This document shows, one piece after another, positions 3,693 through 27,935 of a DNA stretch of 64,000 nucleotides. The position numbers and the translations under genes were made by a program. The DNA lies in the sequence record NC_052654.1. One strand, 5' to 3'. The first letter of the stretch is position 1; every line of letters begins with the position of its first letter. The notes under the pieces were generated by a model, which worked only from the letters and a program-made list of their open reading frames with translations, did not search any database and was not told where the DNA came from. Origin of the DNA: Escherichia phage vB_EcoM-Ro121c4YLVW.

Positions 3693-3694
3693 TT

Positions 3695-3769
3695 TGGTGG
3701 CCCTGGCTGGTTTCGATCCAGCTACCTATCGGTTATGAGCCGACAGCTCTCCCATTGAGCTACAGGGCC
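3695..3769 (-). tRNA. tRNA with anticodon CAU (Met elongator or Ile2)
   Basis: Hand fold: acceptor GGCCCTG/CAGGGCC, D-arm GCTC-AATGGGAGA-GC, anticodon loop CTCATAA, T-arm GCTGG-ATCGAAA-CCAGC, CCA encoded. Confidence 0.65.
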
Positions 3770-10810: not shown

Positions 10811-11028
10811 GTACTGCATTTTATGTTCGTAGCGGAGACGAGGATTTTCTAGCTACTTTTGATGACGGTGATCTTGAAGATATGTATGAAGATATGCTTG
10901 ACTATGCCAAAGGGCAAGGTTTCACAAGCATTGATTATATGTTGGCAACATCTACAACGTTACTCGACGCAGATTTGGATGAAGTGTGTAACAGATTGAA
11001 AATTTCAGTTTTTAAATGGGAGGACTAA
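10807..11028 (+). CDS. hypothetical acidic protein
   Basis: ORF track. Confidence 0.4.
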   Translation: MSTAFYVRSGDEDFLATFDDGDLEDMYEDMLDYAKGQGFTSIDYMLATSTTLLDADLDEVCNRLKISVFKWED

Positions 11029-12143
11029 TGCAACAAACAAATCAAACGCTGTATGGTAAAGATTCAAAAGGAAAACTTAAACAGTGGACAGTATATACAG
11101 ATGGTGCAGTTGTTACTGTAGCTCATGGAAGAGTAGGTGGAAAGATCACAGAAAAATCTTATACAGCAGAAGCAAAAAACATTGGTCGTTCCAATGAAAC
11201 AACACCGGAAGAACAAGCTGAACTTGAAGCTTTTGCCAAATGGACAAAACAGTTAAAGAATGGCTATTATAAAACAAAAGAAGAAGCTGAAAACCATGTT
11301 CCTTCCACACCAATGAAATGCCAGGATTATAAAGATTATCCTGAAAGGGTTGTGTTCCCTGGTTATGCACAATACAAACTGAACGGGTTACGTTCTATGA
11401 TTAACATGAAAGGGGAGTGTTTATCAAAAGCTGGGGAAGTGTATAACCTGCCACCTCATTGGAAAGGTATTCCAAACTTTATTAGTGAAGTTGTTGGTCA
11501 TCCTCTTGATGGTGAAGTGTTTGCTGGGTTAGGTGTCCTTAGTCTGCAACAAATTAACAGTGCTTGGAAGAAGCATAATGCAAATACACCTTTGCTGAAT
11601 TATTACGTATACGATATTCCAGTTCCAGGTCTACCGTTTGAAAAACGTGTTGATGCTCTTGCTGCTCTTAAGGCAGTAGTTGAAGATTATGGTCTTGACG
11701 AGCTTATTTGTGTAGTTCATACAGAGTATATTGAAAACCAAGAGCAGTTTGACGCTTTCTATGAAAAAGCTTTACTTGAGAAAGCTGAAGGTGTAGTATA
11801 TCGTAATGCTCACGGAGTTTACGAATTTGATAAACGTTCTTATGACGTTATTAAACGTAAGCCTCGCCACACCCTTGAAGTTAAAGTAACAAATTCAAAA
11901 AGCGATAAAAATGGCGATGGAGTGTTGACAGGTGAGATGGAAAATGGTAAAGTAGTCGAATTCTTAATGCGTAAAGATGCTCATGAGACTATCAATTATC
12001 GTAAAGCAGAGAATGCTTCTACCTTGATTAATCAGTTCGTTGAAATAGAGTATGAAGAATTTTCAGATGAAGGTATTCCAACAAAACCTGTTGGTGTTCG
12101 TATTCGAGAAATGATCCTAGGCACTTGGGAACCAGCAGAGTAA
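11016..12143 (+). CDS. ATP-dependent nucleic-acid ligase-like nucleotidyltransferase (motif I KLNGLR, III LDGEV, V EGVVYR) with N-terminal WGR-like domain
   Basis: Covalent nucleotidyltransferase motifs in correct order; motif I Asp replaced by Asn. Confidence 0.5.
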   Translation: MGGLMQQTNQTLYGKDSKGKLKQWTVYTDGAVVTVAHGRVGGKITEKSYTAEAKNIGRSNETTPEEQAELEAFAKWTKQLKNGYYKTKEEAENHVPSTPMKCQDYKDYPERVVFPGYAQYKLNGLRSMINMKGECLSKAGEVYNLPPHWKGIPNFISEVVGHPLDGEVFAGLGVLSLQQINSAWKKHNANTPLLNYYVYDIPVPGLPFEKRVDALAALKAVVEDYGLDELICVVHTEYIENQEQFDAFYEKALLEKAEGVVYRNAHGVYEFDKRSYDVIKRKPRHTLEVKVTNSKSDKNGDGVLTGEMENGKVVEFLMRKDAHETINYRKAENASTLINQFVEIEYEEFSDEGIPTKPVGVRIREMILGTWEPAE

Positions 12144-12535: not shown

Positions 12536-13261
12536 ATGATCGAGAATTTTTTTAAAGATATTAAGTTCGATACTGAATTTTTCAAAAATGCAGCGAAGCA
12601 CGTGATTGATTGGAATGCTAAAGCACGAGGTGGTGAACAACCTGAATTCACTCAAGAGCTATTTATGTCCCAAATCGGATTCGTTCGTGAAGAGCTTAAA
12701 GAGTATGAAACAGCCGCGAAAGTAAACGATCATGTAGAACTCTTGGATGCAGCAGCGGATATTTTTGTAGTATCCAGTTATCTGACCTACATGTTCTTTG
12801 GTGAAGAACATACGATGAATTTCTTGGACTATGCTGTAGGCGATGTTTTTACTCCAACTGTGTATACTGATTTTGATGCTTTGGAACAAACATTTACAGA
12901 GCCAGTTCAAATGGCACTAATGGCTGCTGGTATTATGCGTATGTCTCGTGACACTCTAATCCGTTCAAAATATCCAGAAAAGAAAGTTATTAAAGAGGTA
13001 TTGAAAAGTAATGATTCCAAGTATCCAACTAAACAACAGTTGCTGAAAACTTGGAAAACTTCGGATATCGATTCAGCCATTGCACAAGAATGCGCTGCAA
13101 TTGAAGAACGAAATGCCAATCGTCCAGAAGGGGCATACACTGGTGTTCATGCTGTTTATAATGAAAAACAGAAAGTGTATGTGTTCTTTGATGATAAAGG
13201 TAAGATCATGAAACCATCGACCTTTGTCAAACCTAATATTGCAGGTATTATTAACAAGTAA
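12536..13261 (+). CDS. MazG-like nucleotide pyrophosphohydrolase (tentative)
   Basis: All-alpha profile with E-x-x-E...D acidic motif (EELKEYE...DAAADI). Confidence 0.35.
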   Translation: MIENFFKDIKFDTEFFKNAAKHVIDWNAKARGGEQPEFTQELFMSQIGFVREELKEYETAAKVNDHVELLDAAADIFVVSSYLTYMFFGEEHTMNFLDYAVGDVFTPTVYTDFDALEQTFTEPVQMALMAAGIMRMSRDTLIRSKYPEKKVIKEVLKSNDSKYPTKQQLLKTWKTSDIDSAIAQECAAIEERNANRPEGAYTGVHAVYNEKQKVYVFFDDKGKIMKPSTFVKPNIAGIINK

Positions 13262-13317
13262 TGTTGTAAGCCGCCCTTTACGGGCGGTAATGTGAGATGT
13301 ATTAAATAGGAGGAAAC

Positions 13318-14196
13318 ATGTTTGTAAAATCTTTTAAATCCGCTCTGCCTATGGTTGTTGGTGACAATGCTTCTGTAGCATCCCTTAACAGCATTACAGA
13401 TATTCCTCTGGAATTTGTAACAGCAGAAGGCTCCCAGTCACACACTATCGGTCTTGTTCGTTTCGAAGATGACTCTAAATTTGTAAAAGAGTTTTCAGAT
13501 CTTGAACTGCTTAATGTAGGTCAATCTGTGAAGAAGGTAGATAAAAAGAAAGTTAAACGTATTCTGAATGAACGTCTAGAAGAAATGCGTCAGGACATGG
13601 AGAGCGAAGGTAAAGAGTTTTATGTCGATAAAGAAGTAGTCAAAGCAATGAAGGAAGATATTGAATTTGCACTATTGCCTGAAACAGAACCTGAAGATTT
13701 CTTTAACTATGTTGTCTTGGATAAAACTACGAATCTTCTTTATGTTCTTAATGGAAGTAAAAAGGTTGCAGAAGAGATTACTTCTTTCCTCCGTTCCGTT
13801 CTGGGGACTTTCCCTTCGGTAGGTTTTAGTGTGCACGAAGAAGCTATTGTAAAAGGTTTTGGTGAATTGCTGGAGAATCACGAAGCAGATCGTATTACTC
13901 TCGGAAATTATATCAAAATGGAGGATAGCGAGGGCGTTGTTGTTTGGAGTAAAGAATCCCTATACGAGTCTAAAGCTGTCGAACTAAAAGAAGATGGTAA
14001 AGATGTTGTTGCAATCGGTCTTGAATATGACGGTGTTGTAGATTTCGTAGTGGATAAAGAGTTTAAACTTTCTAAACTACGTTTTCCGAAATATTTTGCA
14101 GACGAAGAAGGCAGTATTGAAGCTTCAGTCCTTCTGTGCTTCAATGAGATTCGAGGTCTGATGGAAGATTTAACCAAAGCAACAATCCTTAAATAA
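13318..14196 (+). CDS. rdgC: RdgC-like recombination-associated protein
   Basis: Length about 290 aa and internal block VVLDKTTNLLYVLNGSKKVAEEITSFLRSVLG resembling E. coli RdgC (recalled, not aligned). Confidence 0.45.
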   Translation: MFVKSFKSALPMVVGDNASVASLNSITDIPLEFVTAEGSQSHTIGLVRFEDDSKFVKEFSDLELLNVGQSVKKVDKKKVKRILNERLEEMRQDMESEGKEFYVDKEVVKAMKEDIEFALLPETEPEDFFNYVVLDKTTNLLYVLNGSKKVAEEITSFLRSVLGTFPSVGFSVHEEAIVKGFGELLENHEADRITLGNYIKMEDSEGVVVWSKESLYESKAVELKEDGKDVVAIGLEYDGVVDFVVDKEFKLSKLRFPKYFADEEGSIEASVLLCFNEIRGLMEDLTKATILK

Positions 14197-14200
14197 GTTC

Positions 14201-14229
14201 TTGACTTGCGGGATTAGTTATGATATTAT
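14201..14229 (+). promoter_or_regulatory. sigma70-like promoter TTGACT-N17-TATTAT
   Basis: Direct reading; followed immediately by hairpin 14230-14258. Confidence 0.5.
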
Positions 14230-14258
14230 GCCTACCTACTTAATGAGGTAGGCTTTTT
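14230..14258 (+). terminator. hairpin CCTACCT..AGGTAGG + TTTTT (terminator/attenuator in 5' leader)
   Basis: 7-bp inverted repeat followed by T-run, then SD of next gene. Confidence 0.4.
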
Positions 14259-14268
14259 AGGAGGCGTT

Positions 14269-14478
14269 ATGAAAAAGATTCTGACAGTCGTTCTTTTAGC
14301 TTTTAGTTTCACAGTAGCAGCAGGTCAAATTACTTTAATCTTGTCTGATTCTGAAGTTAATGGCAATACAAAATATTGCTACTATTCTAACGCTAACCAA
14401 GATGAAGTTATAGCAATCCCGAAAAGTCGTCAATGTCCGTATACTAAAACATTCTCAACAGAGGATGACGATGAATAA
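14269..14478 (+). CDS. small secreted protein (signal peptide)
   Basis: ORF track; N-terminal MKKILTVVLLAFSFTVAAGQ. Confidence 0.5.
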   Translation: MKKILTVVLLAFSFTVAAGQITLILSDSEVNGNTKYCYYSNANQDEVIAIPKSRQCPYTKTFSTEDDDE

Positions 14479-14490
14479 TTAGGGGGAAAT

Positions 14491-15609
14491 ATTAGCGGTT
14501 ATATTTTAATTAAACCTGAAGATCTTCATTTATATGTCAACGAAGAAACAATAGCTGCAATTGATTATGATCAGATCGCTTTCCAAGCAGCGTCTGCATT
14601 AGAGAAAAGAACAATCATTGCGAAGCACATCCCTTCAGGTGCTCAAAAGGAATTTAAAAATAAGACAGAGTTTTGGGGTAAAAGCAAGACTAAAATTGGA
14701 GGTTGGCTAGGAGATACAAATGCAGAAAGAGCCTCCAAAAACAAACGTCCCTTCACAAAGGAAGAGTTCGAAATCATTGATAAGCAATACCCGCCAGAAG
14801 ATATCGGACACACCTTCCAAGCAGCTAAAACAAAAGTCTTAGGTATTCTAAAACATCTACGTTTAGAAAAATATTGCGGAGTTATTGGCGTAGGAAAAAC
14901 TTTCAGACACGCCTTCAAAATGCCTGTAGAATATAAGTCTGAACGATTAGATATCAAACCACTTCAGCTTTCAGAAACCAAAGATTATCTTGTGGAGTTC
15001 CACAATGGTGATGTTGTTACTGTAATAGAGGCTGATGATGAGTTAGAGAAGTATGGTTTCCAAGGTTATAAAGATTATAAAAGGACGGGTAAATTTTCTT
15101 ATATCGTAGTGTCTATAGATAAAGATAGTTTACATACTCCTAGTATCCTTTTTAATTTCTACAAAGAGGATGGAGTATTTAAAAATCCAGATATAATTCT
15201 TATTGACGAGTCTATTGGCGATATATGGATCGTAGATAAAGGTAAAAAGAAAGAAGTTAAAGGTTGGGGCAGTTACTGGTTAGCATATCAGATGCTAATG
15301 GGAGATAAAACAGATAGTATCCGACCTTATCAAGATTTTGATATTAAGTTCGGAGATATTACTTGTTTTAATCTTCTTTCAGCTTGTAAAACTCAAGCAG
15401 AACTTTTCCAAACAGTTAAAGATACTTACTACTCATGGTTCCCAGATGGTGTTAATTTTACTTCTTGGGATGGAGAAGAAGTCCATATGACAACAGATGA
15501 ATGGATAGAAACAATTTTCCAGTTGGTATACATGAAACGCTGGGATAATGACGATACAACATTTGAGAGTATGCTTCAGTCATACATCTCGCAACAGGAG
15601 GCAGAGTGA
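14491..15609 (+). CDS. rnh: RNase H / 5'-3' exonuclease (T4 rnh, FEN family), apparently starting at a non-AUG (ATT) codon
   Basis: 147 sense codons upstream of the first ATG (14920); upstream part IAAIDYDQIAFQAA resembles T4 RNase H ICLIDFSQIALSTA; H3TH-like LMGDKTDSIRPY; SD AGGGGG 4 nt before ATT 14491. Confidence 0.6.
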   Translation: MSGYILIKPEDLHLYVNEETIAAIDYDQIAFQAASALEKRTIIAKHIPSGAQKEFKNKTEFWGKSKTKIGGWLGDTNAERASKNKRPFTKEEFEIIDKQYPPEDIGHTFQAAKTKVLGILKHLRLEKYCGVIGVGKTFRHAFKMPVEYKSERLDIKPLQLSETKDYLVEFHNGDVVTVIEADDELEKYGFQGYKDYKRTGKFSYIVVSIDKDSLHTPSILFNFYKEDGVFKNPDIILIDESIGDIWIVDKGKKKEVKGWGSYWLAYQMLMGDKTDSIRPYQDFDIKFGDITCFNLLSACKTQAELFQTVKDTYYSWFPDGVNFTSWDGEEVHMTTDEWIETIFQLVYMKRWDNDDTTFESMLQSYISQQEAE

Positions 15610-16565
15610 GCAGATTAACAGAAGAGCAGAAAGCAGATATCCTTAGTATGAGTGCAGAGGGTATGTCTTCTCGAAATATTGCAGCAATTGTTTTAGGTAG
15701 CCCAACAAGAAAAAGCACAGTAAATGATTTCCTTGCACGTTTCAGTGGAAGTAAACAAGAACCCGTTAAAAAGAAACAACCAGTTATTAAAATTATTGAT
15801 GTTGAAACTGCACCAGAGATTGCATATACTTTCCGTCGATTCAAAGCCTTCATTTCTCCAGACCAGGTGATTCGCAGAGGTTATTTGTTATCCTACTCTT
15901 CTGCTGACCTGTATACTGGTGAAGTGGAAGGTAAGAACTTGTCTTCTTATCCTCTTTTCGATATTGATCATACAGATGATTGGGAGCTTTGCCAAGATCT
16001 TTGGAACCTTCTGAATGAGGCAGATGTAGTTGTGGCACACAACGGATATAAGTTTGACCGTGCATACATTAACCAACGATTTGCATATCACGATATGGCT
16101 CCTCCTTCTAATTATGTAGTCGTTGATACATTGAAGGCAGCTAAGAAACAATTTGCACTTCCTTCCAACTCCCTTAAAGAAATGGGAGCATATTTCGAAA
16201 CAGAAAGTGAAAAACTGGATAACGAGGGGTTCCCTTTATGGAAAGCATGTTGTGAAGGTGATCGTGATGCTTTTGAACGTATGCAGATTTACAATGATGG
16301 CGATGTTGTTTCACTCCGTGATTTGTATATGAAAATCCTTCCGTGGATTCCACAGCATCCTAACTTATCCGCTTATTACCCAGATGAGAAAGTCCGTTGT
16401 TCTCGTTGCGGCAGTGATCATGTTCACGTTGTTACTGGTAAGCAATACCACACTGCGGTAAGTTCTTTCGATATCATTCGTTGTGAATCTTGTGGAGGTT
16501 TGTCACGTAGTAGAGCAAACACCAGATCCAAAGATAAACGAGCAGCAACTATTATTGGAATCTAA
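15606..16565 (+). CDS. DEDD-family (DnaQ-like) 3'-5' exonuclease with C-terminal zinc finger
   Basis: Motifs IIDVETAPE (exo I) and VVAHNGYKFDRAY (exo II/III); C-terminal CSRCG...CESCGG. Confidence 0.55.
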   Translation: MSRLTEEQKADILSMSAEGMSSRNIAAIVLGSPTRKSTVNDFLARFSGSKQEPVKKKQPVIKIIDVETAPEIAYTFRRFKAFISPDQVIRRGYLLSYSSADLYTGEVEGKNLSSYPLFDIDHTDDWELCQDLWNLLNEADVVVAHNGYKFDRAYINQRFAYHDMAPPSNYVVVDTLKAAKKQFALPSNSLKEMGAYFETESEKLDNEGFPLWKACCEGDRDAFERMQIYNDGDVVSLRDLYMKILPWIPQHPNLSAYYPDEKVRCSRCGSDHVHVVTGKQYHTAVSSFDIIRCESCGGLSRSRANTRSKDKRAATIIGI

Positions 16566-16570
16566 TAATC

Positions 16571-16594
16571 AGGGAGCTTATTGCTCCCTTTTTT
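16571..16594 (+). terminator. intrinsic terminator GGGAGC-ttatt-GCTCCC + TTTTTT
   Basis: Direct reading downstream of exonuclease gene. Confidence 0.6.
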
Positions 16595-16623
16595 ATTGAC
16601 AAAAATTTGATATTAGTGTATAC
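16595..16623 (+). promoter_or_regulatory. sigma70-like promoter TTGACA-N17-TATACT
   Basis: Direct reading. Confidence 0.55.
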
Positions 16624-16651
16624 TCTGCTAACCACAATAAAAGGAGGAAAT

Positions 16652-16879
16652 ATGAGCATTACATTAACAGGTAACGAAATTTTTGAACTGTTTGAAATGT
16701 TAGGTTTGAACTATACCATCGAGAAAGACCCAGATTTACTTGATGTTGAAATAACAATTCAAGAAGATACAGCAATCTACAATAATGATGGTGATGTTAT
16801 CTATCAAGGTAGGGTAGCTTATTATACAGACTACCCAGAAGAAGGCGCAGTAGGAATTCAGGAGGAAAATTATGTCTAA
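16652..16879 (+). CDS. hypothetical protein
   Basis: Internal Met of ORF 16607..16879 preceded by AAGGAGG. Confidence 0.45.
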   Translation: MSITLTGNEIFELFEMLGLNYTIEKDPDLLDVEITIQEDTAIYNNDGDVIYQGRVAYYTDYPEEGAVGIQEENYV

Positions 16880-17273
16880 TGCTTTTGATAATCAGGTTGA
16901 CGGTGATCACTACACAAAAATGGCAATGCAACCTATTGAACTAGCTTATTTGGTTGGTGGCACACCTTGTTTTTGCAAATTGGCAAAATACGCAACACGT
17001 ATTAAAGGTGAACGTCAGATTAACCTAGATAAAGCTATTCATTGTATTGAACTAGAAAGAACCCTTATGCAAAATAACACGTATATGGTTCGTGAAAATT
17101 ACCCATCTATGACAAATGCAGCTAAACATGATCAAGCTATGCTTCTTATTGATTTCTTCACAAAAGATCCTTTAATCCGAGTGGCACTGAAACACATGTA
17201 TAACTCTTCTTATGTAGATGCAGTTGAAGCTATTAAACAACTTAAGGAACGTATTAGTGGCGAGCAATACTAA
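16872..17273 (+). CDS. hypothetical protein
   Basis: ORF track. Confidence 0.45.
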   Translation: MSNAFDNQVDGDHYTKMAMQPIELAYLVGGTPCFCKLAKYATRIKGERQINLDKAIHCIELERTLMQNNTYMVRENYPSMTNAAKHDQAMLLIDFFTKDPLIRVALKHMYNSSYVDAVEAIKQLKERISGEQY

Positions 17274-17451
17274 ACAATATGGAGCAGGAGAAGTTTATAA
17301 AATATTCAACCGAAAAGGTGATAAACTTTTACTAACTTTGACTATTCCAGAAACAATGTGCAAGGCGGGGTTAGACCGCCTTTTGTTTTTTAAACACAAT
17401 ATCCCACCAGGGGAATATACAGCTAAAAAGGTGAGCAATATTGGCAGGTGA
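17218..17451 (+). CDS. hypothetical protein (start uncertain; overlaps upstream gene)
   Basis: ORF track. Confidence 0.3.
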   Translation: MQLKLLNNLRNVLVASNTKQYGAGEVYKIFNRKGDKLLLTLTIPETMCKAGLDRLLFFKHNIPPGEYTAKKVSNIGR

Positions 17452-18016
17452 ACCAAAAATAATGTGGGGTGAAGGAACACCCTGGAAAACACAAGCTGAA
17501 TTTTATACTTATCTTAGGGGATGTTTTAGAAAAGCATGGATGAGACACCCTAATAAAATTAAGGTTATCAATGCAAGGCGTTTTAAAGTTGATCGAGTAG
17601 ATAAAGACGGCAATGTGATGATAGACAAGAAAACTGGAAAACCAAAACAAGTTTGGAATTGTGAGTGCGAAATATGTGGACATAGAGGAGGAATGAAAGA
17701 CTTCCAAGTGGATCATATTCACGCAGCAAAACAACTTCAATGTTTTGATGATATTCCTCTTTTTGTTTTCCGTTTAATCTATGTGAAAGAAGAAGATTTG
17801 CGAATGGTTTGTAAATTGTGCAACTCTATTCTTGCTTATGCAGACAAGCAAGGCATATCTTTTGAAGAAGCAAAAGCTGAAAAAGAAGCGATAGCTTTGT
17901 GTAGAGCTAAGAAAGATAAAGCGTGGCTGAAGAAGCGTAAAATAGAACCTGAAAGCACAGTAGCAAAACGCCGTAAACAAATAGTCAAAATCCTATTGCA
18001 GGAAATTGAAAGTTAG
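17441..18016 (+). CDS. HNH-family nuclease
   Basis: CECEICGH...DHIHA motif; TTG start with AAGGTGA SD. Confidence 0.45.
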   Translation: MAGEPKIMWGEGTPWKTQAEFYTYLRGCFRKAWMRHPNKIKVINARRFKVDRVDKDGNVMIDKKTGKPKQVWNCECEICGHRGGMKDFQVDHIHAAKQLQCFDDIPLFVFRLIYVKEEDLRMVCKLCNSILAYADKQGISFEEAKAEKEAIALCRAKKDKAWLKKRKIEPESTVAKRRKQIVKILLQEIES

Positions 18017-18052
18017 TATAAGATAACTATACTGAAAGAGAGAGGAGGTTTT

Positions 18053-18661
18053 ATGCAGATAGTATGTGATTGGGATTTAGTTGTGGCTCCATTAGATGTT
18101 GCTTGGTTAGAATGGTTGAATAAGATTAGTGGACTTGGTGTTAAGATAGATACATTCACAAAAAATGCAGACTATGATCTTACCAACTACTTTCCTGGTT
18201 TCAGGGAGGAGTTCAATATAGATCCTTACGGATTTCTGGATAATCCTCATCTCTATGATACAATGGGTTTTGTTCCAGGTATGCCAGATTTCTTAAAGTA
18301 TGTTTCAAGGAAAGGTAGCAATCTTTTGATCGCAAGTGTGACAAAAGGTGGTCACTTAAGTTCTAAACATAAGCATGTTTTAAGAACGTTAGATACGATT
18401 GATTTTAGCAAAGGATCTGGTAACGGCTTTTTTGCTACGAAAGAAAAATACTTATTGCCTTGTGATATAGCAATAGATGACAGGGCTGATAACCTACTAT
18501 ATTTTCCAGATGAAGTGGTTAAAATATATTTTAATACGCCTTATAAAGATAACCATCTAGAAGAACTAAAGAAAAAACCAAATGTTGTGATCACAGGTTT
18601 AGAAGATCAGTGGCTAACATGTTTGGATGTTTTTAACACTTTGAACAATTTTAAAAACTAA
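18053..18661 (+). CDS. HAD-superfamily 5'(3')-deoxyribonucleotidase-like protein
   Basis: N-terminal DxD (VCDWDLV) and C-terminal IDDR motif typical of NT5C-type nucleotidases. Confidence 0.45.
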   Translation: MQIVCDWDLVVAPLDVAWLEWLNKISGLGVKIDTFTKNADYDLTNYFPGFREEFNIDPYGFLDNPHLYDTMGFVPGMPDFLKYVSRKGSNLLIASVTKGGHLSSKHKHVLRTLDTIDFSKGSGNGFFATKEKYLLPCDIAIDDRADNLLYFPDEVVKIYFNTPYKDNHLEELKKKPNVVITGLEDQWLTCLDVFNTLNNFKN

Positions 18662-18670
18662 GGAGAAAAA

Positions 18671-19669
18671 ATGACAAAACAGATTTCGGCTAGTATTATT
18701 GCGCATTCCATCACTGAAGACGGAAAAGAGATTGTAACTTTCGAACTTGAATATCCACGTATTATTCATTCAGAACTGATGACTCACCGCCTGTTCAGTC
18801 GTAACGCTGCTTCTAGCCGTGCTATACCTGTTAAAACATTGATCGAAATGGTGCGAAATCAGCCTGCTCGTCCTTATCGTTTTGGGGCTAACCAACCTGG
18901 TATGCAGGACAAAGGTGTTGACCATGATGCTCTTATTGATGCAGGTTATACTGCTCAAGAGTGGTGGGATCTTGCCGCGCTTAGTGCAGCACGTTTTGCA
19001 GAAGAATTCTCTTTGGCAGGGTACCACAAACAAGTTGCAAACCGTCTTCTGGAACCTTTCCAACGAATTAAAACAGTTCTGACAGCAACAGAATATGAAA
19101 ATTTCTGGTGGCTACGTGATGACAAAGAAGCCGATCCTACTATCGAAGCTTTGGCTAAAGAGATGCACAAAGAGTATGAAGGATCTACACCAGAAGTGCT
19201 GAAACCAGGGCAATGGCACACACCTTATGTAGACCATTTCTATGATAGTATTGGCACAGAAGGTGACGATCATTTTGTTTTTGGTGGATACTACGTTCAA
19301 GATGAATCTGGAGAAGTTGTTGTGCTTACTTTGGAAGAAGCCAAAGCTATTTCAGCTTCGTGTTGTGCACAGGTTAGCTATCGTCGTTTAAATGCAACTA
19401 AAGATAAAGCTTTAGATATCTATGGTCGTTTGCTGACTGGGCGTAAGGTTCATGCTTCTCCGTTTGAACATCAAGCTACTCCAATGCAAGAAACATGCGA
19501 ACAATATGGAGAGAACTGTTTTGAAGATTTGTTTATCAATGCTCCTTGGGATTTTAACTCTTGGGAACCAGGTATTACCCATGTAGATCGTAATGGTAAG
19601 TTTTGGTCTGGCAATTTCAAAGGCTGGATTCAACATCGTCAACTTTTAACAAATCATACTAAATGGTGA
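18671..19669 (+). CDS. thyX: flavin-dependent thymidylate synthase ThyX
   Basis: ThyX signature RHRLFSRNAASSRA (RHRx7-8S). Confidence 0.8.
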   Translation: MTKQISASIIAHSITEDGKEIVTFELEYPRIIHSELMTHRLFSRNAASSRAIPVKTLIEMVRNQPARPYRFGANQPGMQDKGVDHDALIDAGYTAQEWWDLAALSAARFAEEFSLAGYHKQVANRLLEPFQRIKTVLTATEYENFWWLRDDKEADPTIEALAKEMHKEYEGSTPEVLKPGQWHTPYVDHFYDSIGTEGDDHFVFGGYYVQDESGEVVVLTLEEAKAISASCCAQVSYRRLNATKDKALDIYGRLLTGRKVHASPFEHQATPMQETCEQYGENCFEDLFINAPWDFNSWEPGITHVDRNGKFWSGNFKGWIQHRQLLTNHTKW

Positions 19670-19685
19670 TCTGTTTAAATAGTTA

Positions 19686-19713
19686 TTGACTTTAGTATTA
19701 GTTTTAGTATAAT
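19686..19713 (+). promoter_or_regulatory. sigma70-like promoter TTGACT-N16-TATAAT, followed by leader hairpin GGGAGGA..TCCTCCC
   Basis: Direct reading. Confidence 0.55.
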
Positions 19714-19767
19714 ATAGCACAATACTGGGAGGAGGTGAGTCCTCCCATTCAAAATGAAGGAGAAAAT

Positions 19768-20178
19768 ATGTCATTAGTAAATACTACAACTTGGGCTACC
19801 GTAAGCATGTCTACTGTAATGTCTACCCCTATCTGGAAACTAGAATCAAATAAACACAATGGCAATATCCCACACGAGAAACAAAATGCTGTTATTAGAG
19901 CGTCGCTTGTAATGCTGGGTATGGCTGAAGATTCACACTATTCTGTTGAGCGTAATGTGAATATCCGAAGCAATAACGATAAGCGAGTAGTGTTTGCAAA
20001 TACAACGCTTTTCACTTTCCCTGTTTCACCTAATTGTGGTTTTAAACGAATCTACCAAGAAAATGATATTTTTCATTTTGGTGATGAAGAATTTACAGGT
20101 TGGGGTGCGTCACATATTAAGATGGATGATTTCGGTAACTCTTATGATCCTGCGAAAGCAGATGATACTAATCAATGA
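19768..20178 (+). CDS. hypothetical protein
   Basis: Internal Met of ORF 19735..20178 preceded by GAAGGAG. Confidence 0.45.
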   Translation: MSLVNTTTWATVSMSTVMSTPIWKLESNKHNGNIPHEKQNAVIRASLVMLGMAEDSHYSVERNVNIRSNNDKRVVFANTTLFTFPVSPNCGFKRIYQENDIFHFGDEEFTGWGASHIKMDDFGNSYDPAKADDTNQ

Positions 20179-20429
20179 GAGGGACAATGACTGATAATAA
20201 ATATGAAGGCTGTGAAATCGAAGTCTATTTTGATGAAACTGTTGGTTGTAATGTAACTGTAATTCTAGACACTTCAAAACGTTTATCTCCTAAAAGACAA
20301 GAAGCAGACCGTCGAGCAAAAGCAAAAGGGTTTGATGACATAACTCATTTTGAAGGTTTTCTATATGCTAATGGACTTTTTAATGAAATGAAGTTCGGTT
20401 ATGATGTAGATGTTTTGAATATGCATTAA
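20175..20429 (+). CDS. hypothetical protein
   Basis: ORF track; ATGA overlap. Confidence 0.45.
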   Translation: MRGTMTDNKYEGCEIEVYFDETVGCNVTVILDTSKRLSPKRQEADRRAKAKGFDDITHFEGFLYANGLFNEMKFGYDVDVLNMH

Positions 20430-20445: not shown

Positions 20446-22686
20446 TTGATTCGTTTTGTAACTAAATCTAACGGTAAGACAGAGGAGTTTAATCCAGAAA
20501 AACTTCGTAAGTGGTCTGAATTTGCAGCAGGTAAACTAAACTGGTCTGAAATTGAATTAGAAGCTGTGAAGCGGTGTTATGACGGTGTGTCTACACGTGA
20601 TCTGCATAAAGCAATGATTGCAGCGTGTATTGACAAGAAAACACAAGCTTACAGTGATATGGCAGGAAGACTTCTTCTGGGTATGATTTACAAACAGGCT
20701 CATGGGGGATACCACAGTATCCCTTCACTGAATACCTTTTATCATGATATGGTAGAACGTGGACATTGGGCTAAAATGGATTATACCGATGAAGAGATCA
20801 AAGAAATCGGTAAGATTGTAAAGCATAATAAAAATCTAACTTATGGTTATTCTGTTTTACGTCAGATGGTAGATAAATATCTTATTCGAGATGCAGTAAA
20901 CGATGTGGTGCATGAGTCTCCACAGTTTCTTTTCATTGGTATCGCAATGAAGGTTATGGAGATCCAACCAAAAGAACGCCGTATAGAAGATATTAAAAAA
21001 CTTTATACTTATGTTAGCGATCTTAAGATTAATCTGCCATCGCCGTATCTGACAACTCTACGAACTCCAATCAAAGGAAGTGCGTCTTGTTGTTTATTCC
21101 GTGCAGACGATACGGCAGAGTCTTTAGCCATTGCTAATTACTTAGCTCATGAGTATACGTTGAATAACGCAGGTATTGGTGTTAATCTTCAAACTCGTGC
21201 CACAGGTCAAGGTGTTAAGAATAATCGTATTATTCATGGTGGTCTTCTTCCGTATCTGAAATGGATGGAAGATAGTGTTGGAGCTTCAAAGCAAGCAAGT
21301 CGTGGAGGTAGTGCTACAGTTACCTTTACCATACTTGAACCAGACTTCGACGATCTGATTCGACTGAAGAATCCAACAACACCTATAGATAAACGAGTAG
21401 ACAAACTGGATTATTCTATTGTTGTTAACCGTTCGTTCTTGCGTCGAGCAGCTAAAAACGAAGACTGGATGTTAGTTAGTTGTGATGATGCTCCTGAACT
21501 TTATGAAGCTTTGTATAAAAGTGAAGAAGAGTTTGATGCAGTTTATGACAAAGTAAGCCGACGTCGCATTAAGAAAAAATTCGTCAAGGCTCGTGATCTT
21601 CTTACAGAGATTATTGTTCAACGTGCAGAAACAGGACGTATTTACATGTTCTTTGCTGACAACGTTAACAACCATACACCTTTCTTGGATACGGTGTATC
21701 AATCAAACCTGTGTCAAGAGATCTTCTTACCAACTAAAGCTTTCCACAGTATGCCGGATCTCTTTACTGGTGAAAATACAGAAGATCAAGAATTGGCTTT
21801 ATGTTTCTTATCTTCTATTGTTGCTGGTCGTGTATTACCTGAAGAATATGAGGATGTTGCATACTACACTGTATTGACAATTGACAACGTTATTGAAACA
21901 ATGGATTATCCATTTAAACATAACGAAATAACTGCTAAAGCACGTAGATCTATTGGTGTAGGCATTACAAACTTAGCACATTACTTGGCAAGTAATTTTG
22001 TAAATTATTCAGATGATTATGCTAAAAAATTAATGCATGAACTTGCAGAACGTCATTACTTTTGGTTGGCAAAAGCCTCTTTGCGTCTGGCTAAGGAAAA
22101 AGGTAATGCAGAATGGATCGATAAGACCAAATGGCCTCAAGGTTGGCTACCAATTGACACCTATGCTAAAGCAGTAGATAGTGTCGGTAACTTTGATCTT
22201 AAAATGGACTGGGAAGGTTTACGTGCTGAAATCATTGAACAAGGTGGTATCCGTAATAGTGTCTTGGCTGCTATTGCACCTAATGAGTCCAGCAGTTTGG
22301 TAAGCAATACTACTAACTCTCTGTACCCTGTTCGTGATACTATTATGTATAAACAAAGTCAGAAAGGTAGTGTATTATTTATTGTTCCAGACTACGAAAA
22401 ACTGAAAATGTTCTACCAATCCGCCTGGGATACTCCGGCTAAAGATCTTGCAGAAATGTATGGTATCTTTACCAAGTTTACGGACCAAGGAATTTCTTGT
22501 GATTCTTGGCTAGATTATTCTAAATTGGTAGGTGGACGTTTATCAGTGAAAGCCGAGATGCAGTTTATTCTGAATTTTGCTAGATTGGGTGGCAAGTCAT
22601 TGTATTACCTTAATAGTAGAACAAAATCAGCAGATTCTTTAGCACAAGAAGATTCTGATGGTGGTTGTGAAGCTTGCAAGATGTGA
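20446..22686 (+). CDS. nrdA: ribonucleoside-diphosphate reductase large subunit (class Ia NrdA)
   Basis: N-terminal ATP-cone, active-site NLCQEI, size 746 aa; TTG start after GGGAGGAG. Confidence 0.9.
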   Translation: MIRFVTKSNGKTEEFNPEKLRKWSEFAAGKLNWSEIELEAVKRCYDGVSTRDLHKAMIAACIDKKTQAYSDMAGRLLLGMIYKQAHGGYHSIPSLNTFYHDMVERGHWAKMDYTDEEIKEIGKIVKHNKNLTYGYSVLRQMVDKYLIRDAVNDVVHESPQFLFIGIAMKVMEIQPKERRIEDIKKLYTYVSDLKINLPSPYLTTLRTPIKGSASCCLFRADDTAESLAIANYLAHEYTLNNAGIGVNLQTRATGQGVKNNRIIHGGLLPYLKWMEDSVGASKQASRGGSATVTFTILEPDFDDLIRLKNPTTPIDKRVDKLDYSIVVNRSFLRRAAKNEDWMLVSCDDAPELYEALYKSEEEFDAVYDKVSRRRIKKKFVKARDLLTEIIVQRAETGRIYMFFADNVNNHTPFLDTVYQSNLCQEIFLPTKAFHSMPDLFTGENTEDQELALCFLSSIVAGRVLPEEYEDVAYYTVLTIDNVIETMDYPFKHNEITAKARRSIGVGITNLAHYLASNFVNYSDDYAKKLMHELAERHYFWLAKASLRLAKEKGNAEWIDKTKWPQGWLPIDTYAKAVDSVGNFDLKMDWEGLRAEIIEQGGIRNSVLAAIAPNESSSLVSNTTNSLYPVRDTIMYKQSQKGSVLFIVPDYEKLKMFYQSAWDTPAKDLAEMYGIFTKFTDQGISCDSWLDYSKLVGGRLSVKAEMQFILNFARLGGKSLYYLNSRTKSADSLAQEDSDGGCEACKM

Positions 22687-22692: not shown

Positions 22693-22715
22693 TAGGGGCT
22701 TCGGCCCCTTTTTAT
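22693..22715 (+). terminator. intrinsic terminator AGGGGC-TTCG-GCCCCT + TTTTT
   Basis: Direct reading; same hairpin recurs at 28862 and 40961. Confidence 0.6.
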
Positions 22716-22730: not shown

Positions 22731-23816
22731 ATGGCAGCAATTAATTTACACAATGAAGTTTACAAAACAGGAAAATATCCAGTATTTTTAGGGGAACAAT
22801 TAGGGATTTTTGATTCTGTTAACGTAACTTATCCAGAGATGCACAAACTCTACAAACTTCAAAAAGCACAAGATTGGGATGAGAATGAAGTCAATCTGGA
22901 TCAAACACGTAAAGATTTCGTAGCTTGTTCTAAAAACAACTATGATGTTATGATTAAAAACTTATCGTTCCAATGGGAAAATGATTCTCTTGCAAAATCA
23001 ATCATCACTTTGTTCTCTCCATTCTTGAGTAACAATGAAGCCTGTGCTATGATGATGAAGCAGAGTGAAATGGAAGTTCTCCATGCGTTAACGTATTCTG
23101 AAATAATCCGTCAATGTACTCCAGATCCAATCGAAGTCATCAATCAGATTATGATTAATGATAAAATTTTCAATCGTATGGGTATCATTGCTGATATCAT
23201 GGGTCAGTTGGAAGAAGCTGGTCATAAGTATGCTCTAGGATTGATTGAAGCTAACGATGAACTTCGACTGCTGATTCTTAAAGGGATGGTAGCCCTGATT
23301 GGATTAGAAGGTATTCAGTTTATATCTTCCTTCTCTGCTACTTTTGCTATGGCAGAACAACAACTGTTTGTTGGGGCTTGTAAACTGATCCAGAAAATTA
23401 TGCTAGATGAAATCTTGCATGTTAAGATGGATTACGCTGTAATTGATGCATTGATGCATGACCCAATTTGGCGTAAAATTTACGAAGATAATATTGAAGA
23501 GTTGACTTTGATCCTCGACACTGTTGTTGAACAAGAGGAACAGTGGTGTGACTACCTGTTTAGTGAAGGGCGTTTTATTGTAGGTCTTAACGCCGAATTG
23601 TCTAAACAGTGGGTTTATTTCAATGCTGCTCCTATTTATCGTCGATTGAAAATGAAAGCCAAGTTTAAAGCACCTAAACATAGTCCTTTAGCTTGGATGG
23701 AAAAATGGTTGAATCCTGATTTGATTCAGTCAGCAGCCCAAGAGATTCAGTTAACTAATTACAAATTGAATTCAGCTAACAAAGATCTCTCTGATGATGA
23801 GGAGCTTGACTTCTAA
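22731..23816 (+). CDS. nrdB: ribonucleoside-diphosphate reductase small subunit NrdB
   Basis: Size and position after nrdA, ferritin-like helical profile with conserved E/H ligands. Confidence 0.8.
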   Translation: MAAINLHNEVYKTGKYPVFLGEQLGIFDSVNVTYPEMHKLYKLQKAQDWDENEVNLDQTRKDFVACSKNNYDVMIKNLSFQWENDSLAKSIITLFSPFLSNNEACAMMMKQSEMEVLHALTYSEIIRQCTPDPIEVINQIMINDKIFNRMGIIADIMGQLEEAGHKYALGLIEANDELRLLILKGMVALIGLEGIQFISSFSATFAMAEQQLFVGACKLIQKIMLDEILHVKMDYAVIDALMHDPIWRKIYEDNIEELTLILDTVVEQEEQWCDYLFSEGRFIVGLNAELSKQWVYFNAAPIYRRLKMKAKFKAPKHSPLAWMEKWLNPDLIQSAAQEIQLTNYKLNSANKDLSDDEELDF

Positions 23817-24656: not shown

Positions 24657-25649
24657 ATGCGCTATCTGGTAACAGGTGGTCTTGGTTTTATTGGGAGTGC
24701 CGTGGTGCGCTCTCTTTGTCAAGATCCTAATAACGAAGTTTTTGTCGTTGATAAGATGAGCTATGCAGCAGATATTGAGAATGTAGGCGATATCACTCAC
24801 GTTAAACTAAGCATGACAGATTTGGCAAACGAAGCCCAAGTAAAAAGTTTAGTAGTAGAGTGCAATCCCGATTTCATCATTCACTTAGCGGCAGAGAGTC
24901 ATGTGGATAATTCTATCAAGAATCCACGAGTTTTCATCGACTCCAATATTATTGGTACATACAATTTATTGGAAGCTGCAAGGCTCCTCCCAAAGAATAA
25001 ACTGAAGATGTTCGTACACGTCTCCACAGACGAAGTGTACGGCGATATGGCAGACTCTGGCGTTCCCTTTACCGAAGAGACAGCTTATGCCCCTTCAAGC
25101 CCATACAGTGCGTCTAAGGCAGCATCTGACCATCTTGTGAAAGCTTGGCACCGTACCTACGATTTGCCTGTTGTGATAACCAACTGCTCCAATAACTTTG
25201 GACCTTATCAACATCCAGAAAAGCTGATCCCAAAAATCATCACAAGTATTTTGACGAATAAAGAGATTCCGGTGTATGGTAAAGGCGATCAGGTGCGAGA
25301 CTGGCTTTTTGTTGAGGATCATGCGAGAGCTATTCTTCAAGTGGCAACAGGTGGAGAACCAGGCCAAACGTATAACGTTGGAACACGTAATCCCAAAACC
25401 AATATGGAGATCATCTATATGGTTTGTGACTACATGGATGCTGTACATCCAGAAGCAGGAACCTACCCTTCTTCCAACTTGATAACTTTTGTTGAAGATC
25501 GTAAAGGACATGACTTGCGTTATGAAATCAATCCTTCTAAGATAGAGTCTGAACTGGGTTGGAGTGCAAACTCTACATTTGAACAAGATCTCTACTCAAC
25601 GATTGAATGGTACTTAAACAACCCTCAATGGTGGAGTGAGAAGATTTAA
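24657..25649 (+). CDS. rmlB: dTDP-glucose 4,6-dehydratase
   Basis: Rossmann GGLGFIGS, catalytic YxxxK (YSASK), SDR-extended family length. Confidence 0.85.
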
Positions 25650-25657
25650 GGAGGGCT

Positions 25658-26536
25658 ATGAAAGGTATTATTTTGGCTGGAGGAAGTGGAACCCGCCTTC
25701 ATCCGGTAACACGCAGCGTGAGCAAGCAATTGCTCCCTGTGTATGACAAACCCATGATCTACTACCCTTTATCGGTATTGATGTTGGCTGACATTAAGGA
25801 TATCTTAATCATCACCACACCAGGCGATCAGGAAGACTTTGAGTATCTTCTCGGAGATGGGTCTATGTTTGGGATAAAACTCACTTACGCAATCCAATCC
25901 GAGCCACGAGGTCTTGCGGACGCTTTCATCATCGGTAAAGATTTTATCGGAGAAGACTCTGTTGCTCTTATTTTAGGTGACAACCTATTCTTCGGACAAA
26001 GCTTTGGTAAACTACTGATTAACGCCAGTGAGATGGTAGATGTTTGGGGCGGAGCTTGTATCTTCGGGTATTTGGTGAAAGATCCTGAACGATTCGGTGT
26101 GGTTGAATTTGGGAGTAATCGTCAAGCTATTTCTATTGAAGAGAAACCTGAAAATCCTAAATCAGATTACGCTGTCACAGGTTTGTATTTCTATGATAAC
26201 TCTGTTGTTCAACGTGCATTAGAAGTAACCCCTTCCGCGCGTGGAGAACTGGAGATCACAGATATCAATCGCAGCTACCTCGAAGACAGGAAGTTACAAG
26301 TGGAAGTTCTCGGACGAGGATTTACTTGGCTTGACACAGGAACACACGCCAGTCTGATGGAAGCTGGTCAATTCGTGCAGACTATTGAGAACCGGCAAGG
26401 ATTGAAGATTGCGTGCCTGGAAGAAATTGCTTTCAAAAAAGGGTGGATTTCTTTAGAGACTTTGGTGTATCATGGAAACTCACTGAAGAAAACAGAATAC
26501 GGGCAATACCTACTCAAATTAGCGGAGAGAAAATGA
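25658..26536 (+). CDS. rmlA: glucose-1-phosphate thymidylyltransferase
   Basis: N-terminal [16 protein letters not shown] nucleotidyltransferase signature; 292 aa. Confidence 0.85.
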
Positions 26537-27099
26537 AAGTAGAAAAAACAAAAATTGAAGGTGCGGTAATTATCAAACCAGACGTTTATAAAGATGATCG
26601 TGGTTTCTTTTTAGAAACATATAATGAACAAAAATACGAAGATATTATTGGTAGACAAACTTTCGTTCAAGATAACATGTCTAAATCAAACTTCGGTGTT
26701 TTGCGAGGAATGCACTTTCAAACAAATAATCCGCAAGGTAAGCTTGTTCGTTGTGTAAGTGGGGAAGTATTGGATTTCGCTGTAGACCTACGTAAAGATA
26801 GTCCTACTTACGGTGCTTGGGACGGTGTTGTTCTTCGTGCACGACACCATACACAGTTCTGGCTTCCACCTGGTTTGGCACATGGTTTTATAGTGTTGAG
26901 TATGGATGCTATCTTCGAATACAAATGCACAACTCCATACGACCCTTCCAGCGAACAAAGTTTACGTTGGGATGATCCTGATATAGGGATTGATTGGGGC
27001 TTCGATATGATTTTTGACGAAGATTTTAAACCTATCTTATCAACAAAAGATGCAATGGCTAAGTCTTTTCAACAGCTACGTAGCGAGGGTGTATGCTAA
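26533..27099 (+). CDS. rmlC: dTDP-4-dehydrorhamnose 3,5-epimerase
   Basis: Cupin-type RmlC (about 188 aa) beginning [14 protein letters not shown]; ATGA overlap with rmlA. Confidence 0.8.
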
Positions 27100-27935
27100 C
27101 ATATCTGGTATTGGGCGGTAATGGACAACTGGGACAAGCTTTACGTAAAGTGGCTCCTTCAAATGTATCTTTAATTTATCCTAAAGAACGTGTAGATATT
27201 ACAAATTTTGAAGCTGTGCGAAACGCTATTGTTGAAGATTATGTAGATGGTGTTATTAATTGCGCTGCTTATACGGCTGTAGATAAAGCAGAACATGATT
27301 TTGCTACTGCTTTGGCTGTTAATTCCTACGGCCCTGCAAACATTGCAGCAGTGTGCAGTAAACTTAAAATTGATTTTGTGCATATTTCTACAGACTATAT
27401 TTTTAATTACTCTCATCCTATTTTTGAAGATACTACACCTAACCCAATAAACAATTATGGGTATACGAAAGAACTTGGTGAAAAAATGGTGCGAGGAGTT
27501 AACCCAAATGCATATATTATTCGAACAGCCTCGGTATATAGCGAATTTGGAAATAACTTTCTAAAAACCATGTTGTCTCGCTATAATGATGGACAACGTG
27601 ATTTTATTATTGTTGCTGATCAGTTCTCTTGTCCAACATATGCTCCAGATTTAGCAGAAGCTATTTTTGAAGTATTAAAAACAGGTTGGTCAAGGTCTGT
27701 TAAGACTTACCATTTTGCAGGAAGCCATCTTATTTCTTGGGCGGAGTTTGCGGAAAAGATCTTGACACAGATGCCAGAACCTGTTAAGATATCGGCGGTA
27801 TCAGCTTCAACCTATAATGCTCCAGCAGCACGTCCGGTGAAGTCACAATTAGTAACCAGTCACTATCTTACAAAATCAGATTTAAATAAAGGTATTGAAC
27901 GGTCTTTAGCAGTATTACTTAATAAGGAGAGGTAA
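27093..27935 (+). CDS. rmlD: dTDP-4-dehydrorhamnose reductase
   Basis: Rossmann LVLGGNGQLG; completes the B-A-C-D operon. Confidence 0.75.
   Translation: MLTYLVLGGNGQLGQALRKVAPSNVSLIYPKERVDITNFEAVRNAIVEDYVDGVINCAAYTAVDKAEHDFATALAVNSYGPANIAAVCSKLKIDFVHISTDYIFNYSHPIFEDTTPNPINNYGYTKELGEKMVRGVNPNAYIIRTASVYSEFGNNFLKTMLSRYNDGQRDFIIVADQFSCPTYAPDLAEAIFEVLKTGWSRSVKTYHFAGSHLISWAEFAEKILTQMPEPVKISAVSASTYNAPAARPVKSQLVTSHYLTKSDLNKGIERSLAVLLNKER

Follow-up and report, generated by a model that had tools for sequence, protein, structure and literature searches.

The 64,000-nucleotide stretch of the Escherichia phage vB_EcoM-Ro121c4YLVW genome considered here (NC_052654.1; hereafter the window) carries, between positions 12536 and 20429, genes for a MazG-like nucleotide pyrophosphohydrolase, an NT5C-like HAD phosphatase and a homologue of the thymidylate synthase ThyX, which lie upstream of the ribonucleotide reductase genes nrdA and nrdB. 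The list of open reading frames (ORFs) confirms the position given to the trio, upstream of NrdA/NrdB, in the original prediction, which had been made from the sequence letters. A genome search matched the interval, over 80% or more of its length, to 66 phage genomes, and the best matches, 99% identical, were the Escherichia phages Mt1B1_P17, phAPEC8 and its relatives, and ESCO13, together with Klebsiella phage ZCKP1. On this similarity, the phage can be placed in Phapecoctavirus (Stephanstirmvirinae) as a phAPEC8-like coliphage; the window is 99% identical to Phapecoctavirus genomes and is not T4-like (Straboviridae) by genome similarity, and the remark about ThyX taking the place of the intron-containing ThyA that is usual in T4 started from a wrong premise. 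The trio is already known as a set of conserved, previously annotated nucleotide-supply genes of phAPEC8-like coliphages, and in GenBank records of relatives, the three products are labeled phosphoribosyl-ATP pyrophosphohydrolase or nucleotide pyrophosphohydrolase, deoxyribonucleotidase or 5'-3' deoxyribonucleotidase, and thymidylate synthase, respectively. The genes of nucleotide metabolism in the window are as follows.

12536-13261, plus strand: MazG-like nucleoside triphosphate (NTP) pyrophosphohydrolase, 241 residues (ORF; Pfam PRA-PH; PHROG)
18053-18661, plus strand: NT5C-like HAD phosphatase, 202 residues (ORF; Pfam NT5C; phrog_420)
18671-19669, plus strand: ThyX-like protein, 332 residues (ORF; Pfam Thy1; phrog_85)
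20446-22686, plus strand: NrdA, class Ia ribonucleotide reductase large subunit (Pfam; labeled NrdA in relatives)
22731-23816, plus strand: NrdB, ribonucleotide reductase small subunit (Pfam)
24657-27935, plus strand: rmlB-rmlA-rmlC-rmlD, dTDP-L-rhamnose synthesis, downstream of nrdB and outside the interval of the original prediction
27935-28195, plus strand: glutaredoxin (Pfam Glutaredoxin, 38.1 bits)

The family assignments to MazG-like, NT5C-like HAD, ThyX and NrdAB proteins, which the original prediction would have given up for MazG and NT5C had hidden Markov model (HMM) searches failed to support them, are upheld by such searches in Pfam and PHROG. Pfam support for the trio lies above the gathering scores and is weak, while the PHROG matches are much stronger. 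NCBIfam yielded nothing beyond a thyX match below its threshold. The identity of the downstream NrdAB is unambiguous by Pfam, with NrdA matching Ribonuc_red_lgC at 327.7 bits, plus lgN and a weak ATP-cone, and NrdB matching Ribonuc_red_sm at 114.8 bits. The glutaredoxin is the likely reductant for NrdAB.

The ThyX homologue matches Pfam Thy1 (PF02511) at 33.4 bits against a cut-off of 24.8, covering only profile positions 59-190 of 191, and the PHROG thymidylate synthase profile phrog_85 at an E-value of 1.7e-108. No PDB chain was matched by sequence, whether the single protein or a 38-sequence profile was used. Its AlphaFold model (pLDDT 78, pTM 0.80) has the ThyX fold: both Foldseek matches in the PDB at E ≤ 0.001 are PBCV-1 ThyX, and the other matches listed, with E-values up to ~0.009, probabilities of 0.98-1.00 and TM-scores on the target of 0.4-0.54, are all ThyX or PolB. 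PolB (4p5a), a flavin-dependent UMP/dUMP C5-methylase of polyoxin biosynthesis with the ThyX fold and altered substrate loops, is the third-best Foldseek match (TM-score of 0.51-0.52 on the target); it shares only 15-16% identity with the phage protein, belongs to the unrelated context of Streptomyces antibiotic biosynthesis and is apparently unpermuted, judged from a collinear alignment of 216-217 columns.

Compared with canonical ThyX (Thermotoga maritima TM0449, PBCV-1 A674R and Mycobacterium tuberculosis Rv2754c; PF02511), the phage homologue shares the fold family and is ~110 residues longer, with an extra strand at the N-terminus and a C-terminal tail of 65 residues. Its residues 21-176 can be aligned to 61-201 of T. 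maritima ThyX, and the signature reads T38-H39-R40-x7-S48-x-R50-A51 in place of the canonical R-H-R-x7-S-x-R-Y, with THR for RHR and alanine at the Y91 equivalent. The RHRx7-8S motif originally described is therefore absent; the sequence is THRx7SxR, in which the serine and the second arginine are retained and the first arginine is lost. In alignments, S48, R50 and R149 fall on T. maritima ThyX residues S88, R90 and R174, so the serine and arginine residues that bind uracil are kept, whereas the equivalent of R147 is ambiguous (N124 is aligned to it, with an invariant R125 beside N124). The equivalents of H79, R80, S88, R90, R174 and H53-x-T/S-P-F-E-H59 are invariant in the subfamily to which the phage protein belongs. 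Among 124 members compared (the query and 123 others), H39, S48, R50, A51, R149, H183, S236, H261 and R323 occur in all, and there is little or no variation at R50, R149, H261 and H267, which stand for R90, R174 and the HxT/SPFEH segment. The threonine T38 does not vary among 38 close homologues and is found in 120 of the 124 members. This tight constraint on residues points to an active enzyme rather than a decayed copy.

By sequence comparison, the ThyX homologue is circularly permuted: the module of two strands, two helices and HxSPFEH that opens canonical ThyX is located at residues 178-267, behind the core at 21-176, and the canonical order, in which this module precedes the core, was not found. 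The segment SCCAQVSYRR...KVHASPFEH (residues 230-267) resembles the canonical N-terminal AARVSF...GHETPFEH, and joining residues 177-267 before 21-176 lifts the Pfam score from 33.4 to 45.3 bits and extends coverage to profile positions 14-190. The same re-joining of five members 37-45% identical to the query adds 8-17 bits, with coverage starting at positions 12-15 in each, and a gain in this range is thus seen in six out of six re-permuted members, query included. An HMM of the subfamily (the query plus 123 diverse members) aligns to T. maritima ThyX in a non-collinear manner (217-259 to 20-60, 27-56 to 61-90, and 138-177 to 160-199); the N-terminal 60 residues reach 12.7 bits on their own, and 1000 shuffles gave no score above 4.1. 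Similarly, hhalign against a canonical ThyX profile built from 63 genes of bacterial genomes matches the core with a probability of 97.5% (E 6.7e-12) and gives a second, non-collinear match of residues 178-307 of the long form to canonical 22-165 (E 2.6e-5, probability 75%), of which 178-267 is the meaningful part. The N-terminal segment of M. tuberculosis ThyX gave no score against the HMM of the long ThyX, and the evidence for permutation rests therefore on T. maritima ThyX, the Pfam model and the 63 canonical sequences. The T. maritima and M. tuberculosis sequences used were checked only indirectly: the residue numbers fit, the two align sensibly with each other, and Thermotogae genes are 55-69% identical. 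With clustering at 50% and E ≤ 0.001, the permuted subfamily numbers 5,433 representatives, some of them tandem forms of ~640 residues, and it has no solved structure. No published description of a ThyX permutation was found in the open-access literature, which is not proof of novelty, and no structural or biochemical study of the permuted THR-type subfamily was found.

The product of 18053-18661 is, by its motifs, a HAD-superfamily phosphatase of the NT5C 5'(3')-deoxyribonucleotidase family with a predicted preference for deoxynucleoside monophosphates (dNMPs). It matches phrog_420 at 2.4e-34 and Pfam NT5C (PF06941) over profile positions 5-161 of 180, and a precomputed PF06941 match is present in 11 of 23 clusters of its homologues. 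The DxD...IDDR motif noted originally holds up well, since HAD motifs I-IV are invariant in 23 homologues (D6xD8, S95/T97, K130/K132 and D142-D143-R144), with D142-D143-R144 in the IDDR context typical of 5'(3')-deoxyribonucleotidases. The cellular enzymes cdN and mdN (NT5C and NT5M; PF06941) have the DxDxV, S/T, K and (I/V)DDR motifs in common with the phage protein, which differs from them in a marginal Pfam score (26.1 bits against a cut-off of 24.8) and in that neither sequence nor profile searches detect a PDB relative. The gene is present in 414 phage records, drawn from Stephanstirmvirinae, Vequintavirinae and related phages of Vibrio, Pectobacterium and Cronobacter. The gene that it overlaps or directly adjoins encodes a thymidine kinase in phi92-like phages, and a dNMP kinase or P-loop NTPase in the rV5-like ones. 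Substrate cycles of a kinase and a nucleotidase are known for cellular 5'(3')-deoxyribonucleotidases, and the kinase neighbors in the relatives echo them.

The MazG-like protein matches PRA-PH, a Pfam family of the MazG clan, at 28.2 bits against a cut-off of 21.3, and a PHROG nucleotide pyrophosphohydrolase profile at 7.5e-29; PRA-PH matches are seen in all 26 of the homologues aligned. Its 49 homologue clusters in the protein database all lie within its own phage group, and it is present in 341 phage records. The EExxE...ExxD metal site (E52, E53 and E56; E68, D71 and D75) is invariant in the 26-homologue alignment, as are W26, N27, Q46, S158, N159, K162, K223 and K226. The description of an all-alpha MazG-like protein is borne out by a predicted model that is almost all helix and by this MazG-type metal site, and the clan match together with the metal-binding motif places the protein in the MazG/all-alpha NTP pyrophosphohydrolase superfamily. 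MazG proper (PF03819) gave no match with the query and weak ones in two of the 26 homologues (best E 0.021), and no solved structure was matched meaningfully by sequence. The closest fold to the predicted model is that of the dimeric dUTPases. The dimeric dUTPase model dUTPase_2 (PF08761) had no match at E ≤ 1 in any of the 26 homologues, while phiNM1 Dut (gp31), a genuine phage dimeric dUTPase used as the positive control, scored 68.7 bits; hhalign of the family against phiNM1 Dut was insignificant (E 0.2).

Compared with the dimeric all-alpha dUTPases of a Staphylococcus phage (5myd), Leishmania major (2yay) and Campylobacter jejuni (1w2y), all of PF08761, the MazG-like protein has a similar size and the same carboxylate metal site on two helices, but the structural alignments show only 8-11% identity, and the phage protein has a C-terminal beta-hairpin region with invariant lysines. 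It may thus be described, on the predicted model, as a superfamily member with a dimeric-dUTPase-like shape, for which membership of that family beyond shape is not shown. The complete, 99%-identical genome of the close relative vB_Ec-G1 (PQ433349.1) has no annotated trimeric dUTPase, dCMP/dCTP deaminase, ThyA or DHFR. Since no other dUTPase is annotated, the MazG-like protein is the only candidate for a phage dUTPase, and it is regarded here as a candidate dUTP (possibly dCTP) pyrophosphatase. T4 gp56, a dCTPase/dUTPase, belongs broadly to the same all-alpha NTP pyrophosphohydrolase superfamily and weakly matches PF08761, and profile comparison of the MazG-like family with it was insignificant (E 0.17). 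In T4, gp56 excludes cytosine from the DNA and is paired with a dCMP hydroxymethylase; unlike in T4, the annotation of the 99%-identical genome includes no partner of this kind.

The interval is most likely part of the early/middle DNA-metabolism block of a phAPEC8-like coliphage, in which the genes from the ligase to NrdB form an uninterrupted run on the plus strand. In addition to the trio, the 7.9-kb interval contains RdgC, two exonucleases, an HNH endonuclease and six small ORFs, and two small ORFs lie between the ThyX-like gene and nrdA. The neighboring genes and the terminator and promoter candidates, the latter two kinds being pattern matches from a consensus scan only, are as follows.

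11016-12143, plus strand: ATP-dependent ligase (ORF)
13318-14196, plus strand: RdgC (ORF)
14230-14253: terminator-like hairpin after RdgC
14269-14478, plus strand: 69-residue protein with a signal-peptide-like N-terminus (ORF; phrog_4641)
14920-15609 as listed, plus strand: 5'-exonuclease (ORF)
15606-16565, plus strand: DnaQ-like polymerase exonuclease subunit (ORF)
16571-16589, plus strand: terminator-like hairpin after the polymerase exonuclease subunit
16596-16624, plus strand: near-consensus sigma-70 promoter TTGACA-17-TATACT, directly after the hairpin at 16571-16589
17362-17382: terminator-like hairpin
17441-18016, plus strand: HNH endonuclease just upstream of the NT5C-like gene (ORF)
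19686-19713, plus strand: near-consensus sigma-70 promoter TTGACT-16-TATAAT just past the ThyX stop, upstream of the small ORFs and nrdA
22694-22709: terminator-like hairpin after nrdA, within the nrdA-nrdB gap

These hairpins and promoters agree with the gene layout and suggest several transcription units, and the hairpin and promoter at 16571-16624 would form a boundary between units inside the interval. With such signals between them, the MazG-like gene is probably not transcribed in one unit with the NT5C-like and ThyX-like genes, which alone among the trio adjoin each other (gap of 9 bases). The compact set first described is thus not what is found, as recombination, exonuclease and HNH genes and terminators split the MazG-like gene from the other two.

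The orthologous trio is kept in order throughout the rV5/phi92/phAPEC8 supergroup (341-414 phage records), and members of the BASEL collection occur among the matches for both the NT5C-like and MazG-like proteins. For example, Bas59 (EduardKellenberger, a Vequintavirus) has a P-loop NTPase, the NT5C-like gene, a small ORF, the ThyX-like gene (53% identical, E 3e-122), two small ORFs, NrdA, NrdB, glutaredoxin directly after NrdB, NrdD and NrdG, in that order. The rml operon is missing from Bas59, so that the trio is older than the rhamnose genes and does not depend on them. Similarly, rmlA and rmlB are missing from Mt1B1_P17, which is otherwise 99% identical and retains the trio. In the window, the dTDP-rhamnose pathway is complete (GDP_Man_Dehyd/Epimerase 270, NTP_transferase 246, dTDP_sugar_isom 224 and RmlD_sub_bind 246 bits in Pfam) and consumes dTTP. 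Outside the part that corresponds to the window, the genome of vB_Ec-G1 has four tandem glycosyltransferases at about 88-91 kb, and also NrdD/NrdG and several DNA methyltransferases.

The BASEL study describes phages of this supergroup as "exceptionally susceptible" to restriction-modification (RM) systems and without effective protection (PMC8594841). The attachment of rhamnose to hydroxymethylated nucleotides has been a matter of speculation (PMC7552041), and a later paper repeats the idea of rhamnose on DNA, yet notes that some such phages are sensitive to many RM systems (PMC10844046). More recently, Stephanstirmvirinae have been found to be targeted by Druantia III and ARMADA II, which are thought by the authors to recognize unmodified DNA (PMC13463889, 2026), and both of these later reports are consistent with unmodified DNA. 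A literature search for restriction digests of Phapecoctavirus DNA returned nothing relevant, nor was a direct chemical analysis found. That trio-carrying relatives are readily cut by restriction enzymes makes a substituted DNA base unlikely.

The trio, together with NrdAB and glutaredoxin, is fairly probably a host-independent line for the supply and clean-up of ordinary thymidine nucleotides, in which we infer the substrate of each enzyme. Class Ia ribonucleotide reductases reduce ribonucleoside diphosphates, and NrdAB with glutaredoxin would in this way lead to dUDP and dUTP. The pyrophosphohydrolase would then split dUTP, and perhaps dCTP or aberrant deoxynucleoside triphosphates (dNTPs), into monophosphate and pyrophosphate, keeping uracil out of phage DNA and making dUMP, as is suggested by its intact metal site, its dimeric-dUTPase-like fold and the lack of any other annotated dUTPase in the genome. 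The permuted ThyX homologue would methylate dUMP to dTMP, to which its homology and retained uracil-binding residues point, and this conversion appears more secure than the dUTP specificity of the pyrophosphohydrolase. The NT5C-like phosphatase, whose HAD site is intact, would dephosphorylate surplus or unwanted dNMPs, most plausibly dUMP and dTMP as the cellular enzymes do, and may act as a pool-balancing drain opposing the salvage kinases that adjoin it in related phages. The resulting dTTP would be used for DNA and, in this phage, for dTDP-rhamnose via RmlA.

Several observations weigh against such a line. All three proteins are too divergent for a sequence match to any solved structure, and their activities are predicted from sequence. 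The ThyX homologue scores 31.1 bits with the NCBIfam equivalog TIGR02170, far below its cut-off of 87.9, and departs from canonical ThyX at four residues, in a way fixed across the subfamily (R78 to T, Y91 to A, E86 to A/S and R74 to S/A), so that its product is not certain. The MazG-like protein fails dUTPase_2 and has no profile similarity to phiNM1 Dut, and its dUTP specificity therefore rests on fold resemblance and the absence of a rival candidate. In addition, a dUMP/dTMP nucleotidase beside a thymidylate synthase looks wasteful unless it is regulated, and the BASEL restriction data come from Vequintavirus and phi92-like relatives and not from a Phapecoctavirus.

An alternative use of the nucleotidase, with or without the pyrophosphohydrolase, would be the disposal of host-DNA breakdown products or damaged nucleotides while the pools are rebuilt de novo via NrdAB, NrdDG and ThyX, which is possible and rather unlikely. 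In phage T5, Dmp dephosphorylates the dNMPs released from the host chromosome, and de novo supply would be open to the present phage, whose genome encodes a thymidylate synthase as well as reductases of the aerobic and anaerobic types; the block also contains several nucleases, and an intact HAD site is in keeping with such a role. However, hhalign of the NT5C-like family against T5 Dmp gave an E-value of 0.32, and T5 Dmp itself has no Pfam match; both are phage-encoded dNMP phosphatases, predicted as such for the NT5C-like protein, in phages that make precursors, and without a sequence relationship the likeness is one of functional analogy only. T5 Dmp is also a pre-early gene on the first-step-transfer DNA, whereas the NT5C-like gene is not obviously pre-early and lies immediately upstream of ThyX, and the adjoining salvage kinases in relatives fit pool balancing better than bulk disposal.

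A part in counter-defence, in which one or both hydrolases degrade nucleotide immune signals or offset the depletion or corruption of dNTPs by the host, is improbable. It has been put forward that MazG-like triphosphatases of phages target nucleotide pools in conflicts (PMC7824862, a review), both hydrolases have only putative substrates, and the MazG-like gene is, from the pattern matches, transcriptionally separate from ThyX; on the other side, no family is matched beyond PRA-PH and NT5C, with no search aimed at defence or anti-defence families, and both genes lie in the replication and nucleotide-metabolism block, in a placement conserved over a large phage group.

The original prediction had read the pyrophosphohydrolase and the nucleotidase as selectively clearing specific, perhaps canonical or damaged, nucleotides, in keeping with a modified base in phage DNA; in the form weighed here, they would destroy one canonical deoxynucleotide so that a modified base could replace it. 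Such enzyme classes do fit those of base-replacing phages, where T4 gp56, the PBS2 dTMP phosphatase and the SPO1 dTTPase are established parallels, and a dTDP-rhamnose pathway in the DNA-metabolism block, the four tandem glycosyltransferases and the rhamnose speculation of PMC7552041 could be taken in the same direction. The relatives that are so susceptible to RM systems, however, carry the syntenic orthologous trio, and restriction-resistant virion DNA, judged from the literature on these trio-carrying relatives only, is not found. No hydroxymethylase (such as one of the ThyA family), dCTP deaminase, aminotransferase or other synthase of a modified or replacement nucleotide is annotated by the depositors of PQ433349.1, the MazG-like protein has no sequence similarity to T4 gp56, and the uracil-binding serine and arginines are kept in the ThyX homologue. 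The trio is also maintained in phages without rml genes and in a Phapecoctavirus missing rmlA and rmlB, and a thymidylate synthase homologue combined with a dTMP-destroying enzyme would defeat the replacement of thymine. Nothing at the locus requires the replacement of a canonical base and the published phenotypes of relatives argue against it; it is not supported, and we consider it very improbable.

It is most improbable of all that the permuted ThyX makes another product or uses another substrate (5-hydroxymethyl-dUMP, or a ribonucleotide as PolB does) and feeds a partial thymidine hypermodification elaborated by the Rml enzymes and glycosyltransferases, from pools that the dUTPase-like enzyme and the nucleotidase would, just as improbably, shape: the four altered positions fixed across the subfamily, PolB among the best structural matches, a ThyX reaction that passes via an exocyclic methylene trappable by water (PMC8989533), the presence of rml and glycosyltransferase genes, and the fact that a modification that is sparse or confined to certain sites need not confer protection from the restriction systems tested to date all lean toward it, but the subfamily has more than 5,000 sequence clusters and occurs also in phages without rml genes, the relatives are sensitive to RM systems, S48, R50, R149 and the HxSPFEH motif are invariant, and no flavin-dependent hydroxymethylase of the ThyX type was found in a literature search.

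With ordinary thymidine nucleotide supply as the preferred reading, the gene set belongs to the usual equipment of a coliphage group that is well sampled and supplies candidates for therapy, and the finding as originally stated adds little. That no exotic DNA is implied is useful for the restriction mapping, sequencing and engineering of these phages. The points worth passing on are the permuted ThyX subfamily, which is very large and has an altered signature, and the apparently mis-annotated start of the exonuclease described below. ThyX has been studied both as an antibacterial target and as a mechanistic oddity, and both fields could learn from a naturally permuted form in which residues that contact flavin and phosphate are altered.

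The 5'-exonuclease is annotated in relatives as a protein of 229 residues from the ATG at 14920, in a frame that is open from 14479 to 15609. The 372-residue translation from 14491 aligns end-to-end with the 379-residue Bas59 orthologue (37% identity, E 1e-83), and there is no in-frame ATG, GTG or TTG upstream of 14920 in the open frame. A strong Shine-Dalgarno-like GGGGGA (14482-14487) precedes an ATT at 14491, and in the more distant Klebsiella phage phi1_175008, the corresponding site carries AGGAGG and, after it, ATC. The upstream 69-residue ORF ends, in both phages, a few codons before the ATT or ATC and in the same frame. This arrangement suggests initiation, or coupled re-initiation, at an AUU/AUC codon, in which case the GenBank annotation would be truncated. 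The 69-residue ORF itself (14269-14478) is conserved (phrog_4641, 7.3e-27), and its N-terminus (MKKILTVVLLAFSFTVAAG...), to judge by eye only, is hydrophobic and resembles a signal peptide; the ORF lies between RdgC and the exonuclease, amid genes of cytoplasmic DNA metabolism.

The 133-residue ORF at 16872-17273 is labeled nucleotide kinase in one relative, but has no Pfam match and no significant similarity to T7 gp1.7, so that this label seems to lack support, and it was left out of the pathway. Its N-terminus, DGDHY...KLAKYATRIKG, may by eye recall the DUF3310/T7 gp1.7 pattern. For the rhamnose, DNA, virion proteins and the host surface are all candidate destinations; published speculation favors DNA, although the relatives are restriction-sensitive.

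The gap between nrdA and nrdB is 44 bases here, whereas in vB_Ec-G1, an HNH endonuclease gene and a small ORF are inserted (PQ433349.1 17247-18283). Together with the second HNH gene at 17441-18016, this insertion points to presence/absence variation of homing-endonuclease genes in the nucleotide-metabolism block. An Rfam scan of the window found tRNAs only, in a cluster of 11 genes on the minus strand (1760-3769); in the deposited relative LR597654.1, the tRNAs are listed on the other strand when the two are aligned, possibly through an annotation error.

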